Source: an uncultured Methanosarcinales archaeon (GTDB taxonomy: Archaea; Nanobdellota; Nanobdellia; Woesearchaeales; CAYVYK01). Taken from it: DNA of 48,248 nt. Below, piece after piece: positions 1,921 through 37,070 of the stretch. Numbering within the stretch: the first letter of the stretch is position 1; each line of letters opens with the position of its first letter. Made by a program: the position numbers and the translations under genes. The notes under the pieces are model-generated. The model was not told the DNA's origin and searched no databases. It was given only the letters and a program-made list of their open reading frames with translations. The DNA lies in contig CAYVYK010000013.1 of assembly GCA_964455675.1 (NCBI GenBank), positions 1 to 48,248 on the forward strand, written 5' to 3'.

Positions 1921-4900
1921 TTAAGTGTTGGGTTCCGTCACATTGTCAAGGAACGATATGGGGAACTTGATCGTTGACAGGTTGATGGGCTTGCTGCTTG
2001 CATTGGTAACATTGAGTGGCAGGCTTGTCATGTTGTACATGCAGCACACTTTGTCGTCATAGCATGCGATGTTCGGATTTACTGTCTGCATGGGCGGTAT
2101 GCAGAACTTCTGGCACCGTCCTCCCTCCTTTTTGCATTCGTCTTCCTTCTCGCTGCTTCCGCCGCCACCACCGCCACCACCACCGCCACCACCACCGCCA
2201 CTGCCGCCGCTTCTACCAGGTTGTGCAGTGCTTGGATTTGTTGGTGCCAAAGGCTGTTCTTCAGGAGTCCCTCCTGATCCGGCAGTAGGAGGAGCGGGTG
2301 TTCCAAGTGCTCCCGCAACGCTTTCAGGAGTATTCTGTGCAGTTGCTGACGACTCTACTGAGGTATATTCATCGGTATCATCAAGGAGGAAGAGGAAGAG
2401 TGTGCTGAGGAGTCCTGATACTCCGAGATATGGCAAGAGGTTTCTCGCTGGCTCGCTCATTCCACGTCCGCCGATCGTGTCGAGGTCTGGTGCTCGATAC
2501 ATTTCCATTTTGCGCATGGCGTTCTCGAGCATCGTCCTTGTTTCTGTACCTCCAAAGATACCGATGAGTTCCGTGAATGCTTCCGGTACGCGCGCGACGT
2601 AAAACGCCCGGAATGCTTCTGCTTCTTTTGTTGGCGTGTCATCTGCAACCCAGCCTCCCTCATAGTGGTATGCGATCACGTCTCCTGGCATTCCTTCAAG
2701 TCGGTACTCCATCGTTCCTGCCTCTGTTGTTACCCCGAACTCGATGGCGTTATCGTCGATCATTCGTATCGCAACGGGTGAGACTGGCACTTGGGGCGTC
2801 ACTCCAGGTTCCTGTTCGTCAGCTGGTGGTTCTGTCGCCTCAGTTTCTTCTGTGGGTGGCACTTCAGGTTGTTCTAGATCAATCGTAGGGAGGAGGTCGA
2901 TGACGTCATAGATCATCATCCATTCCTGTGCTGTGGTGTACGTCCCTGATGCCCTGCGCGCGCGTTCTTGAAGTCCTGCTTGCGCAAGGTCCTCGAGTTT
3001 TTTCGTTCGCTCGTCTCCACTGATCGGCGTATACGGACCCATCATGGTATCCGCGTATTCTAGTCGTAGCGCTTCGCCATCGCGCACGAGCTGGTACCAG
3101 GTGTACGCTCCGCTCACGTCTTTTGCTGGTACTGTTAAGCGCAGCGGCGTGACAAAGACGGTTCCGAGATGCTCGATAGCTTCTTCACTCCGCGTTGAGA
3201 TGCGCAGTCCTTCAGGAATGCGAAGGAGCGGGATGCTTCCGTCAAGGGGTACGCTGATCATTTCCCCGGTGATTCGTGCATCATCGCCCTTGCTTCGGAG
3301 TTTGGCGGCCGCTTCCTCCATTGCGCGGATGCTGAGCTCTTTCTCCGTTGCGTCGACGGTTGCTAACTGTTCATCTTGAGGTAGCTCGGATAGCGAGCGT
3401 CGATACTCTGAAAATCCATGGACGTAAGCAAGGATATCATCAAATGCAGGCGTATCCTTCATCGCGCCCCACACGAGATCTTCGGCAAGTTTTCGCTCCG
3501 TGCTAAATACGCTGTGGCTGCTGTGTCCTCCATAATGGAGGTATCCATCCCTTATGGCAATATTGTAGAGGAATCGTTGAGCCCTCAGTTGCCCGTGCTG
3601 TTTTTGGTAGAGGAATCCTTCCTCGCCAGGTTGTCCAATGAGATGTCCTGGTGCGTGGGTGACAAGGAGATAGGATCCCTCCTTCATGTGCTCCTGCAAA
3701 ATGCCTAATGCTTGGCGCTGTTGTTCAACGGTGTAGTGCGGAATGATGAGGTTGCTTACGCGTATGATGTTCGCTTGTGAAAGGAGGTTGATGGTTTCCT
3801 CATTTGGCGCGAGGATATCGCCAACAACGACGGATTGAAGATCTCGCGGTATGATGTCAGGATTGATCTCGACGGCGTGGACTTCTGCCTTTCCAGCAAG
3901 GACTGCTTGCAGCTCTCGGTATGTTGGCGCGCTCGTGCCTGCATCGCTGCCTCCGATTCCAACGTCAACGACTATTCCGTTCTCTGGAACGAGTTCCTTG
4001 ATGACGCTCTGGCTTGCGCTTAGGCGTCCCGCGTACGTATAAACAGGATTTTCGGCGATGATGTCTGGTTGAGACGTCGTAGTGCGTTTTCGTACAAAGT
4101 TGACCAGGTCTTTTTTGAGGAAGTCCCTCCAGATGATGCGCATGACTGCCGCGGCTCTTCCAATACCATTTGCGTCAAGCTGTCCGTAGAGTGTTGCATA
4201 GTCTTTTCTTCGCGCAATTTCCTCTGCGGAGAGTTCATCTGTTGCGCTAACGCCTGCAAGTTTTTGCGCGGTCTGCCGCAGCTTTCGGAATGCTCCGGTA
4301 TCTAGCGCTCCAAGTGCATCAATTCGTTCGTTGAGCATTTCAGGTGTTAACGAAAAGACTCCCTCTGGTGTGTTGAGCCGTACGCGTAGTGTGCTTATGG
4401 CGTTTTTCACGGCTTCATTGTCGTGCGCGCTCGAGAGGTCTGGCAGAAGGATGTCTTCGAATACGGGATCTGCAAGTTTCTCCTCGTCAAGTACTGACTT
4501 CATGTCCTCCATCATTCGTGCGATCTTGCCCACCTTTGCGTACGTCATGAGATCGGGAAGTACGTCGGGATTGACAGCGCTGTCAGAGAAGATGACGCGC
4601 GCGACCATTGCCTGCTCTTTTGTGAGTTGGTACTGCGCAATAAGCGCTTCTATGAGCGCTGCGCGCACGAGCGATTCAGGTGTCGCTCCAATGTCTTGTG
4701 CGGTCTCTTCCAGGGTTTTCCCCGTTTCCTCGACCCTGTTTATGAATTCGGAGATCTTTTCGCTGTACATGCCTGCAAGCATGAGGATATTGTCTGATGC
4801 GATGGGTCTATCCTGGATCAGGTTTTTGCTTCGGAAATCTTCACGCAGTGCCCGAACGCCAAGAATGTTTGGTGATGGTGACTGCTGTTTTCGCTTCGCA

Positions 4901-7900: not shown

Positions 7901-10900
7901 ATCCTGAGCCCTTCTGTGTATGTACTCATTTTTTCGAACGGACTTTCATGGGCGGTATAATCATCAAGGCTCCATACCGTGAGTTCTGCTTCATAGGAGA
8001 GGACCGCGTTGTCGTTGAGCACCTTCTTCACGGCTTTGGTCTCCGCCTCCGCTCGTTGTTCTTTCAATTCAGCAAAGAGCAGCTGCGCTCCAAGGATTGG
8101 CACTTGAATGATCGGCAGGGGATTTGCGTACGTGGTTCCGCCGCCAAGGATCCCCATGATTTTTTTGCGGATTGCCGTGCTCTCCTTCTCGTACGTGTCG
8201 GTGCGTCCGGCGCGTGTCAGGGCTTCTCGGATCTTGGTATGGATCGCATCAAGCGTTTCCTCGTAGCGTTGTATCGCGTCGGGCCGTGGATTTCGGAGGA
8301 GGAAGATCGCCCCGCAGTCTTCAAATAGTGTAGCTATCGTGCTCTTCTCTTCTTCTTTCGTGTAGAGATCTGCCATGAATCCGGTTGTTGCATCATAATT
8401 CACGCTGTATGGATTGATGCGGATGCTATGTTCTTCCGCAAAGGTGTACATGCTGACAAGCTGATCCCATTGACTGTCCGATACTTTGCCAATTTTTTCC
8501 TGAATTCCAAGGAGTTCGTCATTCGAGAGCTGTTCTCGGTTGCTGAGGCTATCAGCATAGAAATGCTTGCGCGAAACTGATTCTGTGACAAGGAATCCGT
8601 ATCCCGGTCCATAATCCTTGTGCGCGATATAGCGTGTGAAGAGCGGATTGTCTTTTGTCTCGATGACTCCCTGAATTATCGGGTCCATCTGCTCTTGGGC
8701 ACTTTCGCTCCAGTATGTGAATGAGACAACACCGTTATTTGTACTGAGTAACAGGTTGCCATAATTATTGCCGCCTGTCAGGGGTTCGTTCTTCTCGTAA
8801 TGAGCAACTCGTTCGTTGACGATTGGTTCAAATTCGGCCCACAACAGGCGGTAGTGGGCTTCCCTGACTTTTCTTGCGGTATCAATAGCGTACTCTTCGC
8901 CGAGGTGCCGAACGGCGTAGAAATGCATGCGTTGGCGTACTCCGTAGTCCGCGATGCGTGTTCCGTCGTAGGCGTCGTAGGTTCTCTCTTTCCATGTCAG
9001 TTCATGGGTGTTCAGGAGACCAGAGATTTGCGTGAATTGTTCGCTCGATAGTACTGGCAGATTGGTGGGTAGTTCCCGGGTTGGGAGATAGTCCGATGGT
9101 ATTTTTGACGCATAGTCTGCCATGCCTGGTACGACGCTCTTCCATCGCTCTCGTTTCGTGATGATCGGTTTTCCACCGGAAAGGTAATTCTCCCATTCTT
9201 GTTTTGTAAAAGACATATGTGCGTGTTCTGGATAAAGTCCGTGCGTGACAACATCGACTTCTACTTTTTCTGTGGCGTCGTAGCTTGTTCTCCATGCATG
9301 GATGAGGAACGTTTCTGTTTTCGCATGATAGGCTGTATGAGGGGTGATCTTCGGATCAATCTCCCGTAGGTACTGCACAAATTCTGGGCTTGTATAGAAT
9401 GAGGGTGCTGCCTGTGCCGTCACATCAATCCTCGTACTTTGCTTCACTCGTTCCCCATCGGATGATAGAATGATTTTGTGGGTGGCGCTGCCTTGGTATG
9501 GTCCTTCATACTGCAAGTATTCTCCAAAAAAGCGGCCATTCACATCGAGTGCAAAGATATCCCTGTATTGATTTGACTTCAGGTAGAGTGTTGTCATTTC
9601 CTCGGAGATTCCCCGGATAAGCGGATCTACAGGCATGAGGAGGTCTGGATATGCATCTCCATGTCGTGCCCTCATGATTCTCGTTGTGAGTGTTCGGACG
9701 AGGAGTTCTTTCTGCGCATCGGAGTCCCAAGAATCAAACATGCCGGTATTTAACGCCTGTAAAGCCCAAGGTTCGAGCGCAGGAGTAATTGCTATACCAT
9801 TTATGCGTGCAACATGAGACCCCACCTCTGAATGAATCTGCTGATCCATAAGGACACGAATTCTGGCATAGGTTTGGAGTCCCTCTCGCACAAGCGCCTG
9901 CCGTGGAGTATCGAGCTGCCGGTATGATATCATATCGTCAAGGCCTGAGGGCATGATATCAATCGTGTGGATGGGGTTCATTCCCTTTTGGATTGAGTAG
10001 GTCGCAGCCTCAACAATCTGTTCTTCTTTTTGCGGGGTTTCCGTTGTGATTTCCAATGGTTCTGTCGCATCGCTCGTGAGTTTTTTATTCAGTATTTTTG
10101 TTCCCCAGTTCATCAGTTTGATGCCTTCAAGACTGTCGCTGATCTTGTGGCGCTGCGTGCTCAAATAGTCGCGTGCCGAGCGATAGCTGGTCTTGATGAT
10201 TCGTTCAGCATCTTGCAGCACTCCAGCAACGGAATTCTTCACGATCCCCCATGCGTGCGTCTTGATTGCCTCCATTCGCTCGCCTCGCATGCTAGCGAAC
10301 ATTCCCGTGCCTTTTTCAAGATTGGCTGCCTCTGCCATGGTGTGTAATGTGGGTACTGCCCCAAGTATTCCCGTCGGATAGAGCCACATTCCTTGCGTAA
10401 GGCCTTTGAGCAGCCTTGAGAAATCGTCCCTTCCGTTGCCAAGATTCCTGCGGAGGATGAATGCGGATAGTTCGCTGAACTCGTTTTTCACAGGTCCTCT
10501 CTTCGCGAAGATTTCGTTAGCTCCGGTAATGATTTCCTCGCGCTGTTCATCAAAAAGTTGTGCTACGGTTCCCTGTTCTTCTAAGGCAGTCCGTTCAGAG
10601 TTCATATAGACCCGGCGCACTCCTTCATAAAAGAGCTCCGCGTCATGCAGCATGACGGATTTCAGGATGTCTCGCGCGCCCTGCTTCTGTTCTTCGTTGA
10701 TCCGCCCGACGAGTCCAAGGTCGATAAGATAGGTGTCCCCATTTTCGCCGAGCATCGCATTTGAGCCGTGAAGATCCGCGTGGAATACTCCTCTCGTGAA
10801 AATTTGTTCTGTGAGCATGTCTCGCAATCCGAGTTTGAGTTTTCCTGAGAATAATCGCCGGAAGAATCCAAGCCTTCCGACTTCTGTTCCCTGCACTCGT

Positions 10901-13900
10901 TCCTCGATCATGATGTTGTCATGGTCACCGACGTAGACCGTTGGGACATGGATTGGCCGCCGTTCAGGATGCGCGGCATTGAACTCGGCGAGCATGTCTT
11001 GGATGTCTTGTGCGTTCTTCGCTTCGATCGTGAAGTGCCGTTCCTCAAGAAGCCATCCCTGGATCGTTCCTGCCATGTCTCCAACGTCCCATTCGGGGTT
11101 CTTCTCCTTGATTGCAGCAAGGACTTTGCGCAGCACGTTGAGGTCATCGTCGATGCTTCGCTCGATCTTTGGCCGCAGTACCTTGATGACGACCGGTTTC
11201 CATTCGCCTTCGGTATACCACCATCCCTCGTAGATTTGTTTCATTGATGCGCTTCTGAGCTGTTTTCCGATCCTGACACGGCTGATATCAATGCCTTCCA
11301 TCGCGAGCGTGTCAAGGACCGCGATCTTGCTGATTGGAGGGGCTGAGTCCTTGAGGCTGCCTAGGTCGCTGCGGAGACTTTCGTCGGGAATCAACTGGTT
11401 TTCGGAGAAGTACTGCCCGACTTTGACTCCGACTGGTCCGAGGTTGCCAAGGAGCACGGACAGTCGCTTTCCTTCCGACATGCGGTGGAGTTCTTTGTAG
11501 TTTTTGAGGAGTGCGATCGCGACGGCTGTTTGTTGTGCTGGTGAGTATTGTTTCATGAGGATTGGGAATATATCACGCATAGTGCCCTTGACTTTTGGAG
11601 TGAGCTGGCCTTTGTCTGTTTGTGGGAAGATGTAGTCAAAGAGCTCGTAGTAGAATTCGTCCATCATTTCCTTTTCGTCTTCTGCTGGCGGGGCAAAGAG
11701 CCCGTTTTCGTCAAGGAATAGCGCCTGCATGATGGATACTCTGTATGCCTCAGGAGCGAATGAGAAGTGGTGTGGCATCTCATCAAAGTTGATATTGCCT
11801 TTTGCCTGGAGTTCCGCAAGGACCTGGGGTTTAGGATACTTGGCGGGGTCAAGGATCCAAAGGAGCATTGCTTTGCGGTCTTTACGTGACGCTCCGGATA
11901 CGATTGACCTGAATACTTGTTCCATGTAATTTGCGTTGGATAGTTCTGCATCGTATTCAAGGTCTTGCCGCATGCGGTAGAGGCTGCGTACTTCTTCGAT
12001 ATCCTCTATGCTGATATCCTCGCTTGGTATTGTGTGCCGCTCAAGGAGCTCTGTGAGCTGTTCGTCGCGAAGCTCGCTTGCGAATGGGAAGAATGCTTGT
12101 ATAGCCGCGAGTTCCTCTGCGAATGTTGGATTCGTGTTTGCTCGAAGTATCTTTATCGCAGTCATGCCCATACGCAGCTGTCGCTGGGGATCAGCTACGA
12201 GTGGTATCGTCCTTGTATAGAATTGTATAGCCTTCTGTGATCGCGCTTTTCCCATCTTGAGGCTTTTTTTCGCAACAATCTCCCATTGGATGGGAGTGTC
12301 GAGCAGGTTGTTTTCAAGGAAAGAGTACTGTTGCATCTTCTCCTCTTGTTCTTGCTGATCAATTGTCAAATCCGTCCTTCGCACCTTCCCAATGGCTTTT
12401 GCGATGCCAATGATTTTTGGTGGAGCGATCTCTGGTACGAGTTCTCTCTCCCAGAGATCAATGAACCCGTCCCGGAAGAGCATTGCTTCGGGGAGGAGTT
12501 TTTCAAGTGTCGTGATTCGTTCATCAATGCCATGCTCCTTTGTGAGGAGGTGGGCATAGCGCTTATCGTAATCAGCCATGAGTTCTACTTTGGGGCCGGT
12601 AACTTGAATGGTTTCGCTGACTGCCTCAAGATATGTGCGTTCGTCATGGGTTTTTTTTGCTTCTTCCTCACTTATGCTCGGCAGCTGTGGGTCGCTGAGA
12701 TAGTCTGCGTACCAGGGGAAGAGCTCTAGTCCATAGTTGTATACGTTTTTCTCGGACGAATGTCTTAAAAATGCATAATCTAATTGGCTGTGTTTTCCGA
12801 TGATTCCGTTTGACAGTGCGAGCATGATTTGCAGCTGTACGGCACGTTCCTTGAGTGCCGCACTTCCTCCATCCGCGCGAGCGATAAGTTTTTCCGCCCG
12901 GCCTTTGACTTCTGGACTGGATGCAAGGAATGCGATAGCTTTTTGTATCCCCTCCATTGATGCGGGATCGCTCTCTCCAAGGGCCGTCCGGAATTGCTTC
13001 TCGATGTAGGAGGGGATTATGACTGAAAAGAACCGCGGATCCTGGACGCTCTCTGCATGGAGGCCATAATAGTCATGGTTGCTGCTGAATTTGTCAATTC
13101 GGAATTTTATAACTGCACCATAATCAACTGAGGATACACTTCTCGTTCCTCCATATTTTCCTCGTAGTTTGTTGATTATGGTGTTGTCGATGACCGATTG
13201 CATCTCAGTTGGGTATGGAAGTTCTACATACCTTCCTTTTCGGACAGCAAGATTATTGCGAAGTTCTGCCTGGTTTCGCGCAATGTCCTGGATTTGTTCG
13301 ACGGATAAATCAAAGAATGTCCTAAAGAATGTTTGATGCTCAGTGTTTGTTGCATACCTGCCATAAGCGGTAGCACCAAAGAGTATGATTGGAGCGTCAT
13401 TGCTTTTAAAACTGACTTCTCCTTTCCGAATTCGTTCTGCTTGAGACCTTGTTATGTATCCTTGGGAGATGGATGCTGGTGCACTCGTGCTTTCCGTTGT
13501 CTCTTTGAGTTTTGCGATGTCAAAGCTAAGTGATCCATGCCGTGAGAGCTTCTCGAGGACTTGATAGACCATGCCAGTCGTGATTTTCTCACCCCTCTTC
13601 TGAGACCGAAGGATGTGTGCCTGCACATATGCAAGCATGAATCCGTTGCTGAGTTCTTGCTTTCTTGGCCTGTGGTCCATCATCCAGTCCATGATGGTAA
13701 TCTCTTCCGTGATACTTTCTGGGGTCATCGCATTCCATACCATCGTGAGTGCATCAATTGAATAGATGACTTTCTCACTAGTAATGAATAATCTATCTTC
13801 GGGTCTGCTGATGCCGTTGTTGGTATACTCATTGTTCGTCAGACGCGTCAGGATCTGGTACCTGTCCGCGTCTGTCACAATTCCGTCGAGTACCTCTGTC

Positions 13901-19900: not shown

Positions 19901-22900
19901 TCGCGCACTATGAAGTGCTTATTGTTCTCGTAACGTTCAGGTATGGCAATGCTTGTTGGTGTTGTCTCTGAGGGCGTATCATCAACCACTTTGTCGAGCA
20001 CGGCAATGTTCCAGAGGCTTCCCTCATACCGTTTGCCGACCTCAAATGCCTCTCCCGCTCCTCGCGCAATATCTGCGATGGTGCGGTAGTGGAACGTTCC
20101 CCTTCCCTTTGCGGTTTCCAGAACTTCATATGATGGTAGCATTGTTTCGTCGTTCACTTCAGTTGCGTCCTTTGAGCGCACCGGCCAATTATCCGAAAAG
20201 ATCACTTTTCCGTTTGTCGCGGTGGATTTCCTCATTGTGGGATAGACTTCGGCAAGCGCCTGCGCCCCTCCAACGTCAGGGAAATACTCGAGGATTCCAA
20301 CGTATGTTTGGACATCATAAGTTCCTCGCGGCTCATCAAAAATGCTTTCTTTGTATGCCCGTGCATTCTGTATGCCAAGTGTCGTGATGAGTTGCTGCGC
20401 GATCGCAACATTCCGCGCTTCATAATCCGCGATATCGACGGTGATGGTTTTCCCTGGGAATTCTTCCATAAGGATGCTTGCGACCATGAGCATGTTGAGG
20501 CCTGCTCCCGCAGCATTTGCTTTCAGGTGGATTTCATCCTTGTCCGCAAGTATTTTCCGCGCTTCGGTGTATGTTGCGTGTGCTTCGAGGAGGAATCTGT
20601 TTCGTGCGGCAATGGATAGTGATCGCACACTGATGAAGTTGTCCTGCAGCCTCACATAGTCTTTCGCTTCCGGAACGAGTCCAAGGTACGGGACAAGCAT
20701 CTCGTATCCTGTGACATAGTTGCCCGTGGAAAGTCCGATAAGATAGTCATTTCCTGTTCGAGCGTAGAAATTGCGCAGTCGTTCTTGGGTCATCCTATTG
20801 AGGGGAATATTCATCACTCGCTCAATCCATCGCTGGAGGAAGTTCTGTCGTTCAATTCTTGGTTGCGCAATCTGCTCTTTGAGATGAGCGCGGAAGAGTG
20901 CTAGAGTGCCAGGTCTGCTAAGCATCACTTCCACTGCTTCCGTTCCTTTCAGTTTTTTTCCTTCCGAGAGTTCTTCCTGCGCGCGAAGTGTCATGTCCTC
21001 GCGCCCAAGATGTTTGCGCAGGAGTTCTGCGATACGTTTCGTGAGGAGTTCCATCTCTTCTGGTTGGGTGTAGAGTACGGCACGAAGTACTCGCTCTTGC
21101 GTGTCGTACCCGGGAGTGATTCCATCACGTGCTCTCGTGACGAGTGGTACGTAATAGTCATTCATGCTGTATTCATCCTTCGATGTATCTCTGCGGTAGT
21201 GCACATTGTATGTTGTTCCACCAACGGTTACCTCATATGCTGGGTGTCTATGCATGAAACTGAGAATTCCTTCAGGTTTCTTTTGCACATGCAGTGAATC
21301 GCCAAACACCTGAGCATGTTCTGATGCTGCGCGGATGAGATTCGTGACATGCATGCTGTATGCTTCGTTCACTCCCTCCTCAGGGAGAAGCAATGTGCCA
21401 AAACGGTTTCCATCTGGCTGGATCTGCACCCGCTGCATGCGCGGCACCGCAAAGTCTAAAGAAAGTGATTTCCCATCATAGTGTGCGAATCCCGAGAGGT
21501 ATGAATAGTAGTTGACATCTCTTGGGTCACGTGCCATCTGCGCGTGGGTAATTTTTGGGTGCCCGATGCTTATGACAAGGGATGGTACTCCTCCTTCAAT
21601 GATGCGCACAACGACTGGCATCTTCTTGTTTTGCGTAAGGAATGCAGGTATTGCTCCCTCTTTGCCAAGAAGCATGTTTCCATCCTCCCCGATAATCTCA
21701 ATACGTGGGTGAGCGCGCTCGAGGAGTGACGCTTGCCGTGTTATTGGGCCAAGGGAAGCGGGCGCAGTCGTATGTGTATAATCATTGAGGGTTTTTTTGG
21801 CCTTCTCAAGGTTTTCATCAAGATTCTGGATGGAGAGATATGGCTTTTCGTTAAGTCTGTAGGAGAGTCCGTATGATCTGCTTGAACCTTTTGTCTTATA
21901 CACCATGTTTGGAGCGATGCTTGTGAGGAGTGCGCTTCCATCCTTCATGAGTGTTAAGAGATCAGCATAGTCGTTGCCATTGAATTGTACGTTGTGCCTG
22001 ACGTGGTAATCATCGTCATCATACCGACCAAAGTAGGGTTCCACGCTCCATGCCATGGCGTACATGACTTGTTCTTCGGGTACGACAGCGGCTGGATCAT
22101 AGCTGAAGCGTATGCCGACGCGTTCTCCGTAGACATTCCCTTCCTGCACGGGTTCCCCATTCACGATGTTGAACGCTTTCTCAAGATCCCCGACAGTGTC
22201 CAATATGAGTTTTCTAAGGTGATAGTCCTCAAGGTTTGTCCCGCCAGGATTCTCACGTGTGTTTCCGAATACATTGAGGTATTTCAGCTCATCGGAGACG
22301 TGATCGTTCTGGATCATTCCTTCCTTCTTGCTGTTATACGCATTTGCGAGGAATACAATGACTTCCCCAGTAGACGGATCTTTCCACACCCTGCCAACCA
22401 TTATTCTGCCAGGATCAAATCCTGTCTGCTTGATGAGGCGTGCACTAGGTCGGAGCTTCGGGTATGAGTCCTTGATAAATTGGGCGATCTTACGTTCTGT
22501 TTCAGTCGTGATATACCCGTTTTCCTCAGCTTCCAAGAGTGCCGCCGCCGCTTGCGCAAGTTCTCCGTTCTGCACGTAGCGCAGCCCCGCGTTCGCCCAG
22601 TGCCAGTCAACGACGAGCACGAGTTCTGCATCGGTGAGCCCATACCTTCCTTGCAGTTCCGGTTTGTACAGATCCCAGTTCACGCAGTCCGAGCACGGGC
22701 TGTCCTTGGCAATGCTGTCAGCGTTTCGGATTCCTTGCGCAGCTAGTCCCGTTCGCTCTTCGGATCGGGTTTGCTCATGGAGTTCGTCTGCGGATACCGA
22801 GGGTAATGATTCAGCTTGCTCGATGCGTGGCGGTTGTGCCTCAAGTTCGGCCAGGATTTGGTCTCGTAGCTCGGATCCTTCTGCTTCAAATACTGCTTCG

Positions 22901-25900
22901 GCAATCGTTATTTGACGTGGAGCGTTCGCTTGAGCATCTGCTTCAAGATTCTTCATCGCGTCCTTGAGCGCGATTATCTGCGCACCTAGCGAGTCTTTCA
23001 TGGGTCCATTGGGAATACTCGCAATCGCTGCTTCCTTGTCTGCAAGGAGTTCCCTGACCGCGGTGAATTCTGCTGTTCGTTCCGTGTAAAGCTCGCTCAA
23101 TTGCTGCTGCTGTTCCGCGACCGATAGTGTATGGGCTGATGCTATTCCTCTCTCTTTTTCGATGGATGCCCTGATTATCATTTCAGCTTCCAGGAGTTCG
23201 GTTGAGAGCGTCGTAATCGTTTCTGATTGAAGTGAGCCATGCAATTCTGCAATGCGCGATCGTTCTTTCTTGATGGCGTCCTGCACGTATGTCGCTCGGT
23301 ATCCAGAGGTTGCTATTCCTCGAGGCATTCCCATGAGCGCGGAATATGTGTCAAGTGCTTTCTGTGCATACCGTTCTGTTTCAGGATTCGTTTTCCACTC
23401 TCGTGCGGTTTTCGCAATGTCTGCGAGGAACATGCCAAGGAGTGAGTCTGGCTCTGGCGCGTCCTGGTTCTTCCAGTGCGTTCCAAGGAGGTATTCCATC
23501 TCGCTTGCCGTGCTCTTCTCGGCGAGTGTATCAAGCTCTGTTTGCCATGTTGCGAGTGTTGCTTCTACGTCCTCAAGTGATTCTTGCGTCTCGAGGACTT
23601 GCGCTTGCGCGCTCGCCATAGCAAGCTCGGGCAGTTCTTCCGCTCCAAGAACGGCGAGGAGTTCCTCTGCATGCTGCATGCTTTCAGCTGTTCGTGTTGT
23701 GGCAAGGTCATTCTGGAGGATTGTTGCAAGAGGCACTGCGGCTTGGACAAGTTCTGCATTGAGTGCTTCCTTGTTCTTTTCATTCTTCATCTTGTCTTTC
23801 TGTTGCGAGATTTTCTCGATGAGTGCTGCTTCGCTTTCACGTGTTGCGCTGCGCGCGTCCGCGAGAATCTCTCTCATCTCCTCATGAAAGTTTTGCGGCT
23901 GCACGATGATGTTATCCTTGAGAGTCTGCATTTCCTTCTCAATTGCATTCTTCAATTCCTGGTTCGTGATATCCTCTGCCTTTCTGCTCTGATCGCCAAT
24001 TGCGTTCGTAAGTTCTGCAGCGTATGCTGGCTCGATCGAGGTTGTTTCAATCATTTCCCTGATGAAGTCGCTCTCTTCTCTGATCGTTTCTGCAGCCGTG
24101 ACGTCCATAGCTAATTCTGTTGCAGTATCATCAAGTTTTCTCGCTTGTTGATAGAATGTCTTCTTGAGGTACTGCAGGCTGTGCTTGTTTCGTGCGAGGT
24201 TTTGAGGGAATGCCATGAGGACCGATACAAGATCGTTTGCCTTCTGTGCGTACTGTTGCGTGAGCGTCTTTCCTGACCATGCCGCTTGCTGCGCGCGTAC
24301 CTCTTCCACGAACGTTCTCAGTTCATATCCTGGCTCGGGCTCTCCGCTGTTCTTCCAGTGCGGTCCCATGAGGGATTCCATATCTGTTGATGTCAATTCT
24401 CGCAGTCGTGCGCTCCATGTAGAGAGAGTATCTTTCGCATTCATGAGTTCTCGCAATGCTATGCGTGCATCCGTTCGTGCGAACTCCGCTTCCAGTTCTG
24501 CGCGTGTTTCGTCGTCAAACATGGAAAGGAGTTCTTGGTTCATCTCCACTTCGCTTCGAAGGTAGTCCAGGTCTTCCGTGGTCACAACGCTCTTTGTATC
24601 CATGGCAAGGTCCGCGGCAGTAGCTACTTCATCCTTGACGTATGATGCCTGTGGAGCAAGTATTGCCGCAAGTTCTGACCGAAGATTGCTGCGTTCATCC
24701 GGTGGCATCGAATTGATCTGCTGTTCCTGCTCTTTCGCAAGTTCCAGGTATGTCCTTACTTCTCCCGGCCGGATGTCCTTTCCGATCTCTCCAAGCGCAT
24801 CGAGATTCTTGTATGCTTGCTCAGTGCTTCCTCCTGGTTTCACGTCGCGAGCAGCTTGTTGTGAAACCGTCTCCGTCCTCTGTTCTGTCTTTGTCTCAAA
24901 TCCCCTCTGGCTGCTTTCTTTTAGCGCAGGCAATTCCTCGCGCCCCACGTATTGTTCTGTAAGACGCGCGGCTTCCTCTAGTGTCCGTGCTTTTCCAATG
25001 GGGAGCTTGACCTCTTCTGCCTTGCTGCCAATTTCAAGATTGAGCGTGATGGGTTTCCCCTCTCCCACACGTTCGGCGAGCAGGCGTATCGATTCGGCTG
25101 ATAGCTTGCCATTGTCAAGTAGTTGCTTCATGAACCCAAGGCCTCGATTCAGTTTGTTCTCGAGGTGCTTTTGGTAGTCCATTGGTTTTTGGCTTACGGA
25201 AATTTCGATGCTTGATGATGTCTGCCATTCGCGTAGGATTTCCTTTGCGGCTTGGAGATTCCTGCCGCCAAGGACGTCCCCGCCTTCGATAACGACGATT
25301 TCGCGCAGTGTGTTTGTCACAAGGTTTTCATATGATGTTTCAAGGCTTCTGCCGAGGAGTTCCTTTGTCCATCGCTTTTCGTTCGCCTCAAACGTATTCT
25401 TAAGTTCGCTAAACCGCTGTTCGAACTCCTTGCTTCCCGCGCGCAGTGTTCCACCTTCTTCTCCGATGACCATGAGTTCTGCGTCGCTGTATTGCCTTGG
25501 TGCATCGCGCGATAGCATCCGTGCGTTATTCCCTCGGTCGCGCAGGCGTGCCTGCACAAGGTCCGTGATCGTGCTCGCCCTGTCCGCAACGACGATGACG
25601 TTGTCTTCCGTCCGTATTGGGCTGTCAAATCCGACATCTTTTCCTTTCAGGTACACTTGGACGAGCCGTCTTTGCATATCGCCGCTTGCTATACTCTTTA
25701 AGCGAAGGGTGAGATAGTCATCGATGGCTTTTGACGTTTCGAACTTTGTGGCTATTCGTCGTCCATTCTCCATCCTAACGAGATATGTGCTTCCCTCGAT
25801 CGGATGGTGGAATACGATTTCCGTCCCTTCCTTGAGGAACTGCGCTTCCACACTGCTGATGATGAGGTCATTCGCTACGCTTCGCTGCGCGACAATAATG

Positions 25901-28900
25901 GCGAGGTCGCTCGCACTTTCCTTGTATGAGAAGTCAAGTGAGTTTGTCTCCCTGATGCTCTTGAATCGTGCGGCCCCATTCAGATCCATCACGACGCGTT
26001 CTGATTGCTTGGTAAGGACGGTAAGTCCTAGCATTTTCGCGTACGGACCAGCGACTGCTCCAGGTGTCCCCGTGACTCCGTGCACTTCGTCGAATACTGA
26101 TATGAGCACTTCCTGGAGTGATGCGCTTGCGGAGTCGCTCGTTGGTCCGAGTTTGCTCCAATCGGCTTTTTCTTGAACACGAGTATCCAAACCGCGTAGC
26201 AGTTCTCGCCCAAGGGTGTTGTATGCCACTATGTCTTCGACTCTTGAGTACTTGCGTCCCGTAACGCGTGAGTCGCTGAATGGTTCGACACTATCTCCAA
26301 CGATTCCATAATCGTTCTGCGGTGTTTCCCGTAGTATCTTTCGGTACCGGTTGAGCATGTCCACTTTTCTTCCGAGCATATTATTTTCGGTTGCAAATCG
26401 CTCGACGATGGTCTCAAGGTCTGATAGTCCTACGTTCTCTGGCACCTCGAGGCGCTCAGACGCAAGAATTTTTCGGAGCAGTGCCTCCTTTGCTGCAGGT
26501 GTATAGTCGTGATAGCTTAGTGATCCTTCAAGCAATCTTCGCTCGAGTGCCACGCCTCGCATCTGTTCAAGGGTCATGCCTTCTGCTGATGCTCCGCTGC
26601 GTTCGACGATGTCCTCGAGCACTTGCCGCTGGATGTGTTCTGGCATCTTCTCGAGTGTTGCGCGATCGAGTGTTGCTGGCTTCACAAGGTCCCGTTTTCC
26701 TTCTCTTCCGATTACATCAGTAAGATAGCGGTTGACTTCTTCGCCGATGCTCACCGTCTGCCTGCCATAAACTGACTCGCTGATGGCGTCGATCTTTCCG
26801 CCGCTGATGGAGTACTGTGTCTCAGCAAGCGTGCGCTGTGCTTCGTTCGCGATGAGTATGCTGCCTTGGATGTTTTTAATGAATTCTTTGCTCATCGGTG
26901 TATCTCGGATATATTCAAAAAAGATGTCAGGCTCGGCGATGATGATGTCCGCTGTCCCTTGTGTTTTTCCTGCTTCATATATTTCTGCGACGATCTTTCG
27001 TGTTTTTCCCGTGACCGGGTCGGTTACCTCAAGCTGGTTGAAGAATTCAAGATTCTGCCCTACTTCCTTGAGGAAGTCTCCTTGGATGCTTCCTTTCTCA
27101 AAGAGCAGAATGACTTTCTTACCGGTGAGCATGTGTTTGAGTGCCGCAGTGTAGGGCAGGATGATCGCGTCCTTTCCTCCACCTGCGATGAATTCCATAA
27201 TGGTTCCTTCATGCTGTATGATGTCAAGGATGCTTGATACCTGTTCTTCGATAGCTGCGTACTTCTCCTTTTCGGGGATCGTGCGCTTCGCGGCATCAAG
27301 CCTTTGAATAGCTTCGTTCGTGAATTCGACCATTTGTTTCACGCGTTCCGGCGCGGATTCAGGCACAGTCACCTCGACTTGTTTCGTGTCTGGATTCTTC
27401 ACGACGGTAACTCCTGCTTCCTTCATTTCCTTGATGATTGCAGCAGATTCTCCTCGTGTAACGCCAACGCTTGTGGGATTTCGTAGGTTGCCGACGATGC
27501 CGTCAGTCGCTATGCCGCTCTCCCGTACTGCCTGTCGTGCTCCTTCAGAATTCATCGAACGTATCCGGTCATGAAGTGCCGAAAGGTCTGCCGCATCTTT
27601 TTCCGCTCGCGCGGCAAGCGCAGTGAGCGCCGCCCGCTTTGATGTGTCTTTTTCCGCCAATGCCTGTCGCTTGAGGTTCTCTGCTTCCGCCGCCTTCATG
27701 TGCTGTCGTGATTCAATCACTTTTGTATAGTCTCGTGCAAGGAGTGCCTGCTCCATCGTGTTGAGTTCATTGATCTGTTTGACTTGGTACTCATATTCTT
27801 CCGCGGTGATGGATTCGCTCTCGCTCTGCCGTCGTAAAATCTCCCGCTGCGCGTTGCGCGACTCGGAAGTAAGTTCTATTAGGCGTTCTTCATACGTTTG
27901 CCCCCGTCCTCGTGATCCCTCGATTTGTTCTCCAAGAATTCGTAGCTCGGTATCGGGTGTTGTTGACTTCTGCTCAACTTCCGCAAGGATGTCGGTTCGT
28001 TCCTGCTCGATGTCCCGAAGGTGGTCCTGTGTTCGGGAGATTTGTACTTCTTCCTGTTGTTTCAGGAGATCTTCCTTGGTAATGTATCCTTTCTTCTGGA
28101 GTTGCTCTATGTTTCTCTGCTGTTGGATAAGGAGTTCATCGCGAGCGGTTTCGAGTTCTGCCCGTGCGGTGTCAACTGTTTCTCGCGCGGTTTCTATTTG
28201 TTGTTGTATCTGGTTTTTCTCTGCAGTATTGGTCGAGCGTTCGATTGATGCTTGCTTGTCTGCGATCTCCGCCCTTGCCTTGTTCACGATGAGTTCTTGC
28301 TCTTTTACCGCAACGTCCTTGTCGCGCGCAATGATTTCTCTCTGTTGTCGGTCGATCTCTCCGGTAAGGAGATAATTATCAGCTTTAAATGCGTCAAGCC
28401 AGCGTTGTTGTGCGGTACTCACTTCCCGTAGTGCACCGATCTGCTGTTCCCGAAGGGTAATCATCGCTGCGTCAGACTCCCCAGTAACTTTGCTGAGCTG
28501 TCCGATCTGCGCTTCAATCTGTGCTGCCTTGAGCTGTTTTGCCTCCAGTTCGTAGCGCCTGATGTTTTCGAGTGTTGCTCTCTGCTGCGTATTGTCAATT
28601 CTTCCCAGGGCAGTTCGCGGTGGATTGATGTGGTTATCCGCCCATAGGAGCGCGGATTCAGCTTCCGCTGCCTTTTGTCGTGCTGCTAGGTTTTCTTGCA
28701 GTGCCTGCTCAACAGTCCCTGGCTCTGCATCCTTGTATGCCTGTTCAGTAGCTTTCACTCGCGCTCTTGCTTGTTCAACGTCGCGCGCCAGGTCTTTCAG
28801 AACGATGCTGGACGCGGTGGTTGGCTCTGCGGCTAGCTCTCGCGCAACGAGAATCTCTGCTTGCTGTCTGAATTCTGATTCAACAGTCTCCATGGTGCGG

Positions 28901-31900
28901 GCGCGTTCCTCGATCTTGATGGCAACGTCGCCCGCCCGCGCAGTTTCTCGGAACCTTGCCGTGATTTCTTCTGCGGCAGCCTGCCGTCGCGCCGTCTGTT
29001 CGACAAGTGTTCGCGCTTCTGCGCGGGCTTGTTCTGCGCTGATGCTTCTCTGTGTGCTGATCAGCTGCGCAGTTCGTTCAATGAGTTCAGGTGCTGTTGC
29101 CTCCACTCGCTGCTGGACGTTTTGCCGAAATTCAGCATCTGTCGCGCGAGCTTCTGCGTGCTTCTCTAGCACTGCTTCCTTCTCTTTTGGCGTCGCTGAT
29201 TCGATTCTGATAGTGACGTCTCCAGGTTTGAAATCAGGTTTTGTCTCAGCCACTGCATAGTCAAGTGCTACGTCCCGCTCGGATTGGAGCGTTCTCGCTC
29301 GCGCATCAACCGCCTCTCGAAATTGTGGAACATTCCTGTTCGCATCTAGTGTAGTGCGTACTGCGGATTCAGGTGCTTCTCGCACAGTGGTTTCCGTCGC
29401 TGTCCGTGTTCGTTCGATCAATTTATCCACTTGCGCGGTATTTGGGCGAACATCCGCGCGGGTTGGTGTTCGTGCCACGCGGTACGCGCCGATTGCTGCG
29501 TCCATTGCGGCAAATGTGGCAAAGTTTGATGCAAAGTCCGTGCCGACGGCTCCGGCAAAATTCCACCATTCTTCACTTGTTAAGTCGTGGTTCGCGGCGC
29601 CGTCTGCCAGTTCATCAAGCGCCGCTTGGGTGTTTGGTGAGACGACGGTAAGTCCGGCGCTCGTCGTCGCGATTCGTCCTACCGCTCGCACGGTGTTTTG
29701 GGCCACTGCTCCGGTATTTGGCAGTTTCTCAAGCGGGCGAAGGAAGGAGAGTTTTGCCGGGACAGCGTGCATCCATCCAAGCATCGCCGCGGACTCTCCA
29801 AGGTTTAGGAGCGTGTTGCCCGCGACATCTCCAAGGGTCACGGCTTCCGGATGTGCGGTATCACCAAATGCGGAGAATCCGTGTTCTGCGATCGCTTCTC
29901 CGTTCTGGAGCAGGATTTTTGGGGCTGCAAATCCCGCTGATTCAACTGCAAATACCGCGAGTTTGGATTCTGTCTGAATTGCTTTAAGGCCGCCACTGAT
30001 TGATTTTCCCGCTTCCGCAAATTGTTTTGCCCTCTGGCTGATCTTCGCGGCAGTCTCTGCGACTGTTTTCATCTTACCAATATTGAGGAGCGCCGCTGGG
30101 GTCATGAGTGATATTGCCATCTCCGGCGTTGCGAACGCATCAAGGATGGCTAATGCCGCATGCTTCTGTGTGAGTGACTGCGTGTCCAAGAGTGCTTCAT
30201 CTGCGCTCTTGATCCGAGCGGCTCCATCATATGCGCTGTTTATCGTAAGCTCTTCTCCGTCGCGAACGAGCCTTCCGCTCGCTACGAGAATTTCCTCCTC
30301 GCGTTCGCTAAGGCCTCCGATACCCTTTGTTGCTAACGCGTAGTTGGCATTCGCTACTTGTGTCTCATCATTCGAAAGGGCGGTGAATTCATCAAATCGT
30401 GTCTCTTCACCTAGAGAACTTGATATACCGTCGTAGACGCCCTGTCCCCATGTGATGACTCCTGTTCCCCATCCCTGGAGCCATTGTCCGGCTGTGCTGT
30501 CCGCTTCGTTCGCAAATTCCGCTGCCTTCATTCCGCTCTGTTCTGCGGCGGTGATCATTGATGATGAGAATTCTGCCATCGCTGCTTCTCGCGCATCTCC
30601 AGTGTTCATCCGGTTCAAGAGCTCAGTATCGCTAATCGCGTACATGCGTGCTGCTTGGGTATCACTCTCGATGAGCGCGTTCCTGAATGCGAATGTTCTT
30701 CGTTCGAGTTCAGCGATGTCCGCTGCTTTCTCTGCTGTTATGCTTGGATCAGATATCGCCAGCTGCAATGCGCGGTGGCGCACGGCTGCCGTATACTGGT
30801 CCATCTCTCCTGTTGGACTATATCGTTCGGAGTTGAGACGCTGGAGTTCTGCGTTGAGCGCTGCAGGATCAGTATGTTCCGTGGTGAAGTCCTCTAGCCA
30901 TCCTGCTGTTGCTTGTATTTCCGCAACCCGCTGGACGTTGGGATAGATGGTTCCAAGGGATTCGAATGTACCTGTGACATAGTTGATTTCCGCAAGCTGT
31001 TCGTTTGATATTCCTCCTACGTCAATAAAGTTCGCGGCTCGTACTAAAAATCCGAGCTTTGACTGATCCGCCATTCGCGCTTGGGCTTCGGAATACTGCT
31101 TGAGCTTGTTGAGCGCAGTCACGCGATCTTCATCATTCTCTGCCGTGATGACTTTGGATAGATAACCGAGCGCGACACTCTGCTCTTTGTAGCGGTTGCC
31201 TTCCTGCTCATCCTTGGCATCGTGGGTTTGCATGTATCGCTGGTTTGCTTCTCGCATATGATCGCTGCTTTCTTTAACGAGTGCCTTGAGTTCTTCACTC
31301 GAGAATGATGCGAGTTCTCCCATGTTTCCGTCTTTAAGGAATGTTCCTGTCGATATTTGTTCTCGTGCCTTCTGTTTTGCCGCATTGGATGCGTGCATAG
31401 CAGTTCCGCGTTCGCGAAGGATCGTGCGCGCTTGCTCGACGGTGAGGTCTTGGAGTTTGATATCGCGTCCTTGAATGGTAACAGTCTCAGTTCCATCTGG
31501 GTACAGCATGCTTACTGCATACCTGAGTTTCTCAACGTCATTATTGCCGTCAATGAATGTGCTGTATGCTTGCAGTGCGCGCTCACTGCCGTCAATACCC
31601 TGAATGCTGCGGGTAAACTCCGTTGCGTATTCTTTGTATTCCTGTGCGTCGGTAAGCCGTTCAATCATGGTTTTGCTCGTCGCGTGGATCTCCTCATGTT
31701 CAAGTGAGTTCCTCGTGAGCTGCTCGATCCTGTTCCATGATTCCAGGGCTTTGTCGTATTCTCCCACAGCCTGGTGTAGAGCTGCCTGGTCTTTGAGCGC
31801 GAGAGTGTCATGTGCGTTCTTTGCCAGGGCTGCGCTGACGCGCTGCTCTGCTTTCGCGACTGCAACGTCGAGTTCCTGCTGTGTTGCTTCTTGGTTCTGT

Positions 31901-36135: not shown

Positions 36136-37070
36136 CGTATCAGGAATTGTATGTTCTTCTCCGTTGTGGTATGGCCATCGTTCACGCTAATGATAGTGTC
36201 ATACGTCCCGCGTATCTCGGGCGTGAAGCTGATCGCGCCTTGCCTGATGTCAAAGAGCGGCGTGGTATCAGCAAACGTAAGGGTATCCATCTCGTCGTCC
36301 GTCACGTTAAGAATAATGGTGATGGGTTCTCCGACTCTGCCTTCATAGACCGCGGGCAGGTTATTGATGCGGGGCGGCGTGTTGATGACCAGTTTTGCTG
36401 CAAAGACGAATGTGATGTCCTGCCCTTTGACATCGAGGATGATAGTGCTTGGGTCATACGCGACGGTTTGGACGGTAAAGTCGGTTGATTGGAGCAGAGC
36501 GAGGTCGAGGTATCCGGTGTTGATTGTCTTGACAAGTTCGTGCGACTCTATGAGCGCGGCTTTGATCGGCTTGTCCACTTTGATGTTGAATGCACTGATG
36601 CGATGTTCCAGATTGTCCTTTGCAAGCAGCGTTCCTTCTGCATAATATAGAGTGATGGTGTTCGCATCAAGCGTAATCCCTTCGATTGTTCCTCCCGTGA
36701 TCGTGTAGCCTCGGAAAGGTTCGCCTGTGCAGTTATCAAGGGCAATACGTGCGAGTTCTTCAAGGGTGTGCTCAAGTTCTTGCTCGCTTGGGAGCACATC
36801 GCGATCGAGGTATCCATAGTTGATATGCCCCTCTTCCGCTTGGATTGCGCTCGCCTCGATGTTTGGTTTTCCTGCCTGAAGAGCGAGCCTATCCACAAGG
36901 CTGCCATAGTGTTCGGCAACGCAGGAGCGGATATAGTCCTCATATGCGGCAGTATCGCTTGGAGTGATGTTTAGCGTGTCATTGTCGCTCGTGTACTTCC
37001 AGATGAGAAGTGATGCTCCAAGCGCGACGATGAGAATGATGATCACGAAGATTGCCATTTGTCCTTTCAT
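36132..37070 (-). CDS. Class III signal peptide (archaeal pilin-like) protein with a C-terminal Ig/cadherin-like domain
   Basis: MKG|QMAIFVIIILIVALGASLLIW start. The C-terminus NTPPRI...LNVTDDEMDTLTF...ISFTP...GTYDTIISVNDG is Ig/cadherin-like. ATGA overlaps at both ends. Confidence 0.75.
   Translation of the reverse strand: MKGQMAIFVIIILIVALGASLLIWKYTSDNDTLNITPSDTAAYEDYIRSCVAEHYGSLVDRLALQAGKPNIEASAIQAEEGHINYGYLDRDVLPSEQELEHTLEELARIALDNCTGEPFRGYTITGGTIEGITLDANTITLYYAEGTLLAKDNLEHRISAFNIKVDKPIKAALIESHELVKTINTGYLDLALLQSTDFTVQTVAYDPSTIILDVKGQDITFVFAAKLVINTPPRINNLPAVYEGRVGEPITIILNVTDDEMDTLTFADTTPLFDIRQGAISFTPEIRGTYDTIISVNDGHTTTEKNIQFLIR

Follow-up and report, generated by a model that had tools for sequence, protein, structure and literature searches.

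The window analyzed here, a stretch of 48,248 nucleotides from an archaeal (DPANN) genome, raises the question of whether a giant protein can carry a SecA-like ATPase in an organism of this kind and, if so, whether this ATPase still operates as a motor. A single minus-strand ORF of 11,404 aa (positions 1921–36135) carries the module in question. To our knowledge archaea lack SecA, and the host genome, which is 99% complete and encodes SecY, presented no SecA_DEAD (PF07517) match anywhere, so the absence of SecA assumed in the original prediction holds for this host.

The giant protein presents strongly hydrophobic helices at its two ends only. These are an N-terminal signal or anchor helix (aa 12–30; 36046..36102, minus strand; Kyte-Doolittle 1.98) and a C-terminal transmembrane helix (aa 11233–11251; 2383..2439, minus strand; Kyte-Doolittle 2.0), which is followed by a tail with poly-Gly and six Cys. 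Cysteines occur mainly near the ends, with four in the first 600 aa, six from aa 10801 onwards (the C-terminal tail stretch), six scattered over aa 4201–10200 and none in aa 601–4200; because of this distribution a cytoplasmic location fits the middle part of the protein, and the SecA-like module would be cytoplasmic. C-terminal to the module, Pfam identified Metallophos (aa 5416–5594), Peptidase_M48 (aa 6703–6870), ABC1 kinase (aa 8295–8500), SpoIIE/PP2C (aa 9617–9815) and pieces of a RIO/APH-like kinase (near aa 10150–10210). On the N-terminal side there are two Ala/Gly-rich, weakly hydrophobic segments (aa 1993–2011 and 2059–2077; 29905..30159, minus strand), with 19-residue Kyte-Doolittle peaks of 1.46 and 1.33, about 900–990 aa before Walker A. 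The position of the module after a hydrophobic segment had been read as fitting a motor, and this argument is not supported, since the segment is weak (Kyte-Doolittle 1.3–1.5) and lies about 900 aa upstream.

The SecA-like SF2 ATPase module comprises aa 2956–3790 (24766..27270, minus strand), as delimited by the homology range, the models, the fold matches and the profile-profile comparison, and its 835-aa stretch is open throughout. BLAST similarity of the relatives reaches aa 3736–3933. The extent proposed earlier, 25350–27260, does include all six motifs, and falls short of the longer conserved module.

The SecA-type motifs were all located on the minus strand in the giant ORF, in the predicted order and with the predicted variants GGGKD, NEAQ and QARLRDRG. 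Q2965 (27241..27243), an invariant Gln in the family alignment located 23 residues before the P-loop Lys, would represent the Q-motif position. Walker A, AGGGKD (aa 2984–2989; 27169..27186), keeps the Lys and has Asp (codon GAC, 27169–27171) at the Ser/Thr position. Walker B or motif II, IANEAQ (aa 3095–3100; 26836..26853), keeps the catalytic Glu and has Asn (codon AAC, 26845–26847) in place of Asp; this residue, N3097, aligned to the Asp of V-D-E-V-D in E. coli SecA. The hairpin motif NDYGIVGDSVEPFSDSRVTGRKYS (NDYGIV...GRKYS; aa 3274–3297; 26245..26316) is colinear with the SecA pattern D-Y-I-V ... G-R-R-W-S, and it is followed by motif III, VTGTPG (aa 3354–3359; 26059..26076; MTGTA in SecA), and motif VI, QARLRDRG (aa 3528–3535; 25531..25554), with its arginines kept. 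The motifs are more than chance occurrences because they are located on conserved columns of an eight-sequence family alignment, whose invariant columns include Q2965, G2987, K2988, E3098, G3356 and P3358. The window copy retains 13 of 13 invariant columns, among them the Q, G-K, E, G-x-P and motif VI positions.

Two AlphaFold models, both built from 8–10 sequences and of moderate to low confidence (model 1: 701 aa, pLDDT 69, pTM 0.60), present two RecA-like alpha/beta lobes. Motifs Q, I, II, III and VI on two RecA lobes place the module in the SF2 helicase-like superfamily. The comparison of model 1 with the PDB in Foldseek revealed SecA or SecA2 at ranks 1–23 (E 1.7e-13 to 5.1e-9), and the next family was RIG-I-like, from 1.3e-8. 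SecA/SecA2 was the top fold match in three structural searches, and SecA was ahead by about 3 Z units in two structural searches of the module. SecA 6itc_A aligned over 288 residues across model residues 1–422, while SecA chains align to model 1 up to residues 622–666. The prediction of a SecA-like fold therefore stands, because SecA and SecA2, and no helicase acting on nucleic acids, gave the best structural matches, and the model has both RecA lobes.

The models also show how the likeness to SecA is distributed along the module. Lobe 1 has an insert of some 235 aa between its motifs II and III (26101..26808, minus strand; model secondary structure) formed by six helices and then a beta-hairpin and helix, at the site occupied in SecA by the preprotein cross-linking domain. 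The hairpin-helix end of this insert aligned to SecA when its profile was compared alone in hhalign (SecA 321–411, E 0.04, with a single SecA sequence; SecA 320–412, E 0.003, with a 61-sequence SecA alignment), and the alignment is confined to this end. The insert that the original prediction likened to the cross-linking domain thus resembles it in the hairpin-helix part only, the remainder (the first ~150 aa) being helices for which no SecA counterpart was seen. The second RecA-like, NBD2-like lobe (aa 3375–3568; 25432..26013, minus strand; models) is directly followed by a helix of about 50 residues (aa 3569–3621; 25273..25431, minus strand; H630–682 in model 1 and H614–663 in model 2), which may correspond to the scaffold helix of SecA; the alignment of the E. 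coli SecA chain 2fsf_A extends as far as residue 666 of the model and residue 654 of the chain. In hhalign no sequence-profile similarity to SecA was seen for lobe 2 or the tail. Three more helices and one hairpin (aa 3627–3711; 25003..25257, minus strand) are conserved in relatives, present pLDDT of 47–74 by 10-residue block, falling below 40 beyond model residue 740, and had no SecA profile match. No wing domain or two-helix finger was identified in the module, in a part that has low pLDDT and lies beyond the reach of the fold search.

At the sequence level, the HMM comparison suggested with the original prediction was negative, as neither SecA_DEAD nor SecA_PP_bind matches the module. Searches of Pfam, NCBIfam and PDB sequences gave it no name, and an 850-aa piece of it searched against Pfam returned nothing relevant, SecA families included, up to an E value of 10. 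Of eight family members, none matched SecA_DEAD even with E values up to 1, seven matched ResIII and six DEAD, and the window copy itself matched no Pfam family, ResIII and DEAD included. On the other hand, the family profile aligned with 61 proteobacterial SecA sequences at 95.7% probability (E 9.7e-9, 289 columns, SecA 91–413), a comparison for which the SF2 controls were single helicase sequences; this alignment is in register at Walker A, Walker B, the Y-x-I-S-G strand, the hairpin motif and motif III. The closest ESM-Atlas cluster, which serves as a lead only, was a SecA_DEAD/SecA_PP_bind family (0.89, 182 shared features).

The family is very rare, with 11 matches among 1.84 billion representatives, and within the phylum 5 of 401 genomes contain the module, the host genome counted. 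Its full-length members are parts of proteins, either giant or truncated, from DPANN archaea and from Patescibacteria (source names Nanoarchaeota and Patescibacteria/Beckwithbacteria). Hydrophobic peaks lie 280–1300 aa upstream of the module in seven of the 11 remaining rows of the family; P0005 and P0013, two of these rows, fall into a single 90% cluster. Three relatives carry Ser/Thr-phosphorylation parts (kinase, PP2C, FHA) on the same chain, and one carries a metallophosphoesterase. The window copy is 35% identical to its nearest relative across the module, and the predicted changes of T to D in Walker A and D to N in Walker B are real: all nine relatives examined retain GK[S/T] and D-E, so that GKD and NE are unique to the window copy among ten members. 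Contigs from X2, another sample of the same study, span the stretch without indels and with both Walker codons unchanged; they present three differences from the window, all three synonymous and none in the Walker codons.

This analysis establishes the motifs, the two-lobe SF2 fold, SecA as the nearest known fold, the rarity of the family and the lineage-specific substitutions. In P-loop ATPases the Walker A Thr/Ser and the Walker B Asp hold Mg2+. We propose with modest confidence that the module is a highly divergent SecA-type SF2 clamp, which binds nucleotide, is impaired in hydrolysis ("locked" or very slow) and may have a role at the membrane. Binding with impaired hydrolysis would follow from the replacement of the two Mg2+-ligand positions together with the retention of the rest of the pocket (Q-motif Gln, P-loop Lys, catalytic Glu, motif III and motif VI arginines). 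Judged from these residues, the window copy probably binds ATP and scarcely hydrolyzes it, and the relatives with intact motifs are probably active ATPases. At the membrane the clamp may hold or guide the chain of the giant protein, and it would not be a processive motor. This part in handling the giant polypeptide, like any role in export or insertion, is an inference. The original prediction had favored a motor threading downstream domains across a membrane; with both Mg2+-ligand positions lost, the window copy is unlikely to work as a processive motor.

The kinship on which this proposal depends could be misread if the module were an SF2 helicase or translocase of the DinG/XPD, RIG-I or Cas3 kind that depends on nucleic acid, and whose likeness to SecA would come only from an accessory domain at the same lobe 1 site. 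In a search of PDB sequences the family HMM placed Cas3 (2.4e-4) and RIG-I (8.5e-4) above SecA (0.14) and also matched DDX39, and hhalign with the first family alignment scored SecA (46.4) no better than generic helicases (44.4–46.6). We nevertheless consider a helicase unlikely. SecA leads in the two structural searches and also when lobe 1 is compared alone (rmsd 2.7 against 3.8, identity 16–22% against 11%), and Rad3-type helicases (XPD, DinG, CasDinG; PDB 8e2w, 6fwr, 4a15) match lobe 1 less well in Z, rmsd and identity alike. Single-sequence profile scores were 55.0 for E. coli SecA (286 columns) against 46.1 (121 columns) for the best of seven SF2 helicases of the same genome, and the helicase control alignments end at Walker B, whereas the SecA alignment runs on across insert and hairpin as far as motif III. 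Lobe 1 of XPD/DinG (Rad3) helicases carries an Fe-S cluster domain with four cysteines; the module has no cysteines for such a cluster, which is impossible here because aa 601–4200 contain none. The location of the module in a membrane-anchored protein also argues against a helicase.

Other readings concern the two substitutions. An ATPase that remains active with re-wired metal binding, in which the new Walker A Asp binds Mg2+ and offsets the Asp-to-Asn change in Walker B, would fit the joint occurrence of both changes with the charge of the site conserved and with the catalytic Glu and arginine fingers kept; moreover, T to D takes two nucleotide substitutions, more in keeping with selection than with drift. 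Against it, neither change, single or paired, is found in any of the nine other family members, and the Asp-to-Asn change in Walker B of E. coli SecA (D209N) abolishes hydrolysis and not binding, so we regard this reading as rather improbable. More doubtful still is a decaying relic, an ATPase module without function in this lineage that is retained as a spacer of the giant protein. The window copy alone has lost both Mg2+-ligand positions and is no longer matched by the Pfam families DEAD and ResIII, which match most relatives, but every invariant family column is kept, the reading frame is open along the module, and its identity to the nearest relative persists over the whole module. The relic, which the original prediction had offered as the alternative to a motor, is further weakened since all the other nucleotide-pocket motifs are kept and the only three SNPs between the two samples are synonymous.

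Least probable, in our estimation, is that the family serves ultra-small episymbionts among DPANN archaea and Patescibacteria as a device for export or injection, built into one polypeptide. A motor derived from SecA and tethered beside a hydrophobic, membrane-inserting region would thread its own kinases, phosphatases and protease across a membrane, possibly that of the host, and the paired Asp/Asn swap would have turned the motor of this archaeon into an ATP-locked clamp or switch. If this were true, archaea would have a translocation ATPase of the SecA type, acquired from or shared with another domain of life.

The clamp proposed here can be compared with two known systems. With canonical SecA and SecA2 (PDB 1tf2, 3jv2, 6itc, 4uaq, 2fsf, 3bxz) the module shares the two RecA lobes and the order of SF2 motifs, the site of an insert in lobe 1, flanked by motifs II and III, the x-I-S-G strand that comes after Walker B, the D-Y-x-[IV] ... 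G-R-[KR]-[YW]-S hairpin, the T-G-T of motif III and, as far as the models show, a long helix after lobe 2. SecA is a free-standing protein of about 900 aa, whereas the module is embedded in an 11,404-aa chain of an archaeon without SecA. The module also falls below every SecA Pfam threshold, has substitutions at the Thr of Walker A and the Asp of Walker B, and presents an insert that is mostly a helical bundle instead of the cross-linking-domain bulb, with wing domain and two-helix finger not found.

The second parallel is with the giant proteins of Omnitrophota and Actinobacteriota, in which a 2023 preprint described divergent SecA_DEAD and SecA preprotein-binding domains and proposed for them a role in the export of the giant protein itself (10.1101/2023.11.21.568195). 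Those domains likewise lie inside membrane-associated multi-enzyme giants with peptidase, methyltransferase-like and phosphatase parts, in organisms that have separate Sec components, as here, and the same embedding was found at aa 2956–3790, with weak nearest upstream hydrophobic segments. Compared by description, the bacterial domains are recognized by Pfam SecA_DEAD and their hosts have a normal SecA, whereas the present module is archaeal and Pfam-invisible, apparently keeps the scaffold-like helix in the model and has lost two catalytic residues. The consulted parts of 10.1101/2023.11.21.568195 make no mention of DPANN or archaeal giant proteins or of Walker changes. SecA-like domains in giant proteins, known from bacteria through that work, are thus represented here in an archaeon, with the GKD and NE substitutions.

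The window encodes a giant protein of 11,404 codons in a single unbroken ORF (1921–36135), which lies on the minus strand, as do all genes and features of the window treated here. Its SecA-like SF2 ATPase stretch, hereafter the module, occupies aa ~2956–3790 (24766–27270). The interval 25350–27260, for which a SecA-like translocase with altered Walker motifs had been predicted, corresponds to aa ~2959–3595, and all the motifs quoted in that original prediction were found in the stated order: Walker A, AGGGKD (aa 2984–2989); Walker B or motif II, IANEAQ (aa 3095–3100); the hairpin motif of the insert, NDYGIV...GRKYS (aa 3274–3297); motif III, VTGTPG (aa 3354–3359); and motif VI, QARLRDRG (aa 3528–3535). 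The unusual Walker residues are encoded by GAC (Asp, Walker A) and AAC (Asn, Walker B). The whole stretch is also covered, with no indels, by contigs of another sample from the same study, which show three differences from the window, all at synonymous third positions and none in these two codons. Since the same codons occur there in an indel-free stretch, assembly error does not account for the substitutions.

An AlphaFold model of aa 2940–3640 (model 1), obtained with an alignment of eight module sequences including the window copy, presented two alpha/beta lobes (pLDDT 69, pTM 0.60). Lobe 1 bears a large insert, formed by six helices followed by a hairpin and a helix, and a helix of about 50 residues comes directly after lobe 2. 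The Foldseek search of model 1 against the PDB returned only SecA or SecA2 at ranks 1–23 (E from 1.7e-13 to 5.1e-9, about 750 alignment columns), and the RIG-I-like receptors were next, from 1.3e-8. SecA and SecA2, and not a helicase, are thus the best matches of a two-lobed fold, in models which, for model 1 as for a second one of the module (model 2), were built on shallow alignments. In model 2 the pLDDT falls below 40 beyond model residue 740; the region where a wing domain or two-helix finger would lie is too uncertain and outside the coverage of the fold search.

Plain sequence searches gave a more general picture. An 850-aa piece of the module found nothing relevant in Pfam or NCBIfam and no match by phmmer among PDB sequences; the values for Adhesin_P1_N (0.47), MtaB (0.051) and a tape-measure protein (0.15) were judged unusable. 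A check with the SecA_DEAD and SecA_PP_bind models had been suggested with the prediction and did not bear it out, as none of the eight aligned members matched SecA_DEAD at E up to 1. ResIII matched seven of these eight and DEAD six (best 1.2e-10), with no Pfam family matched by the window copy in the same scan. The family HMM against PDB sequences ranked Cas3 (2.4e-4), RIG-I (8.5e-4), DDX39A (0.085) and SecA (0.14), all over lobe 1 only. Together with the ResIII and DEAD matches, this order means that plain HMM evidence indicates SF2 and not SecA; by its sequence, the family is one of SF2 ATPases. Among the control genomes, SecA_DEAD also had matches in Methanocaldococcus jannaschii and Sulfolobus acidocaldarius: 12 genomes matched, 11 of them over the cut-off, and only 10 are bacterial, so that at least one of the two archaea is over it. 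This model thus also picks up certain archaeal SF2 proteins, so that its failure to match the module family is all the more telling.

Profile–profile comparisons provided the more specific evidence. With the column setting -M 50, hhalign aligned the eight-sequence profile to E. coli SecA alone with 61% probability and E 8e-5; the alignment (286 columns) extends from Walker A across the insert as far as motif III. Default column handling gave only 10%. Seven SF2 helicases of the host genome, chosen via Helicase_C, served as controls; under the same settings the best three scored 44.4–46.6 against 46.4 for SecA, but covered only Walker A to Walker B (114–144 columns). The score against SecA alone therefore lacks specificity. 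The probability rose to 85% when the target was an alignment of 61 proteobacterial SecA sequences, and a profile cut from a longer family alignment reached 95.7% (E 9.7e-9, 289 columns, SecA 91–413), the SF2 controls for this value being single sequences rather than deep family alignments. The row of genome G043, a carrier of the module from the same phylum, is partly misaligned in the longer alignment and was excluded from the hhalign profiles; a further alignment, with one row misplaced, was set aside. In this register N3097 falls on the Walker B Asp of V-D-E-V-D, Y-S-I-S-G on L-I-I-S-G, N-D-Y-G-I-V...G-R-K-Y-S on D-Y-I-V...G-R-R-W-S, and V-T-G-T-P on M-T-G-T-A. Against single-sequence targets the longer profile scored 55.0 with SecA and 46.1 with the best helicase control.

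The insert profile alone also found the colinear SecA segment, weakly (E 0.04 with the single sequence, 0.003 with the alignment) and as the best of eight targets, and the profiles of lobe 2 and the tail gave no signal with either SecA target in hhalign. An ESM-Atlas look-up, taken as a lead only, placed a SecA_DEAD/SecA_PP_bind cluster first (0.89, 182 shared features), with SecA_DEAD in six of the ten rows shown. We consider it likely that the module is specifically kin to SecA, beyond the generic SF2 core. A helicase with an Fe-S domain was rejected, as aa 601–4200 contain no cysteine.

The positions invariant in the eight sequences include Q2965, G2987-K2988, E3098 and G3356-x-P3358. The window copy was compared with nine relatives, namely the seven others in that alignment and the modules of two carrier genomes of the phylum, G043 and G007. 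In all nine, the residue that follows the P-loop Lys is Ser or Thr and motif II reads Asp-Glu; the Asp in Walker A and the Asn in Walker B occur only in the window copy, which retains the Q-motif Gln, the P-loop Lys, the catalytic Glu, motif III and the arginines of motif VI. In P-loop NTPases the two replaced positions are the protein ligands of Mg2+, one direct and one via water. The Walker B Asp-to-Asn mutant of E. coli SecA (D209N) is reported to bind ATP without hydrolysing it. On these two grounds, the window module would be a nucleotide-binding form with impaired hydrolysis.

Both altered Walker residues foreseen in the original prediction are thus real, and the motor role proposed there is, in the sense of a processive ATPase, unlikely for the window copy. 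The relic offered as the alternative is weakened by the conservation of all the other motifs. There is room for a rival reading, a site that has been re-wired and is still active, because the Asp and Asn changes occur together and shift the acidic side chain instead of deleting it; the replacement of both metal ligands speaks for impairment. As the best composite explanation we propose a SecA-type nucleotide-binding clamp with impaired hydrolysis, carried in a giant protein, and give it somewhat better than an even chance.

The family is rare. An exhaustive phmmer search of the module against 1.84 billion representatives recovered 11 proteins, three below 1e-30. Seven, all of them giant or truncated chains (1,694–7,969 aa), cover the module wholly or for the most part; the other four (247–930 aa) cover only part of it. 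Source names, where given, are Nanoarchaeota archaeon (the nearest relative), Patescibacteria and Beckwithbacteria. Five of the 401 genomes sampled from the phylum carry the module, host genome counted; one is marginal (E 9.8e-6, 527-aa frame), and the other three hold it inside open frames of 6,471, 7,979 and 12,045 aa. In the host's order, which has many families and genomes of 0.6–2.7 Mb, it occurs in three of 61 genomes, again with the host. A single-module pattern search of genome contigs gave 64 pattern matches and no confirmed relative, and a DUF3638 protein from a search of longer proteins (1,228–3,505 aa scored) was disregarded as marginal, with 3% query coverage.

SecA counts as a motor of bacteria and plastids, and archaeal protein export proceeds without it. 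The host genome (1.72 Mb, 25 contigs, 99% complete) contains SecY and ribosomal protein S3Ae, the latter matched among the control genomes only in the four archaea. The Pfam SecA_DEAD model has no match in this assembly.

Only two segments of the giant protein are strongly hydrophobic (Kyte-Doolittle about 2.0), aa 12–30 and 11233–11251. The hydrophobic segment predicted before the module exists as an Ala/Gly-rich region (aa 1993–2011 and 2059–2077), but its peaks are weak (1.46 and 1.33) and lie 900–990 aa upstream; a highly charged stretch follows, with 41% E/K/R/D/Q in aa 2401–3000. Seven of the 11 other family rows have hydrophobic peaks 280–1300 aa upstream of the module (two of these seven, the relatives P0005 and P0013, share one 90% cluster), and five rows share a strongly hydrophobic N-terminus with the window protein. 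Cysteines are mainly terminal, four in the first 600 aa and six from aa 10801 on, in the C-terminal tail stretch; six more are scattered over aa 4201–10200, and aa 601–4200 have none. From the hydrophobic segments, the cysteines and the domain setting we infer that both ends are extracellular and the ATP-using central part is cytoplasmic. Such an arrangement would call for additional crossings of the membrane, odd in number, and the weak segments could serve as these. The tail (aa ~11230–11404, 1921–2440) has a membrane helix, then a run of 14 glycines, a short six-cysteine motif and several N-x-S/T sequons, and resembles a small part exposed outside the cell, glycosylated and held by disulfide bonds.

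After the module the chain continues with Metallophos, M48 peptidase, ABC1 kinase, PP2C (SpoIIE) and RIO/APH-like kinase pieces, and among the relatives FHA, Pkinase, SpoIIE and Metallophos domains occur. Two helical units of ~270 aa directly after the module (aa ~3850–4400, ~22900–24600) have a common H-W-K-N...E-P-E-P signature, suggesting an internal duplication. Three tandem kinase-like units of ~200 aa each (aa ~9850–10450, ~4800–6700), with G-x-G-x-x-G loops and weak RIO1/APH/Pkinase matches, are preceded by the PP2C (SpoIIE) and ABC1 kinase domains, which makes the C-terminal third a phospho-signalling cassette. The relative P0009 (930 aa, truncated contig) has a full Ser/Thr kinase domain (Pkinase 6e-42) ~440 aa before its SecA-like lobe 1, another link of the module to phospho-signalling parts. 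In G043 (C21, 1802–60521, L074–L077), giant frames of 7,533 and 12,045 aa adjoin each other in the same orientation, their ends overlapping; the second starts with masked letters and has the module near its start, with a large extra insert in lobe 2. This protein and the window protein have the module, the Metallophos region and one more segment in common, in different order.

Next to the giant gene, a 312-aa gene (36132–37070), whose product carries a membrane helix at its N-terminus and matches no Pfam family, overlaps the start of the giant gene by four bases (36132–36135). Given this stop/start overlap the two are probably translationally coupled, and the 312-aa product is a possible partner. 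An ORF of 1,243 aa (44517–48248) opens with GTG at the last bases of the window, where the contig ends and its 5' end may be cut; its MopE-type metal-binding motif, Gly-rich linker and many membrane helices mark it as a further large protein of the surface or membrane in the neighbourhood of the giant gene.

If archaeal giant proteins carry a SecA-type module, this fold has been recruited beyond Bacteria and for a use other than the Sec pathway, in the very organisms whose means of contacting a host have yet to be described; the same rare module is also present in Patescibacteria giant proteins. No paper describing a SecA-like domain in giant proteins of archaea or DPANN turned up in the literature collection searched. 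What is described for bacterial giant proteins tempers the interest: according to a 2023 preprint, most of those in Omnitrophota and some in Actinobacteriota contain divergent SecA_DEAD and SecA preprotein-binding domains, without scaffold and wing and near transmembrane regions, for which a role in exporting the giant protein itself was proposed (10.1101/2023.11.21.568195). The terms 'DPANN' and 'Walker' are absent from its text. The window module is therefore another member of a kind known from bacteria. As far as that text allows the comparison, three points set it apart from the bacterial domains: its family lies below Pfam detection, SecA is missing from its host, and the replacement of two catalytic residues is unique to the window copy. 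For the question of what embedded motors of this sort do, the natural double substitution at the metal site offers a ready comparison of active and 'locked' forms.
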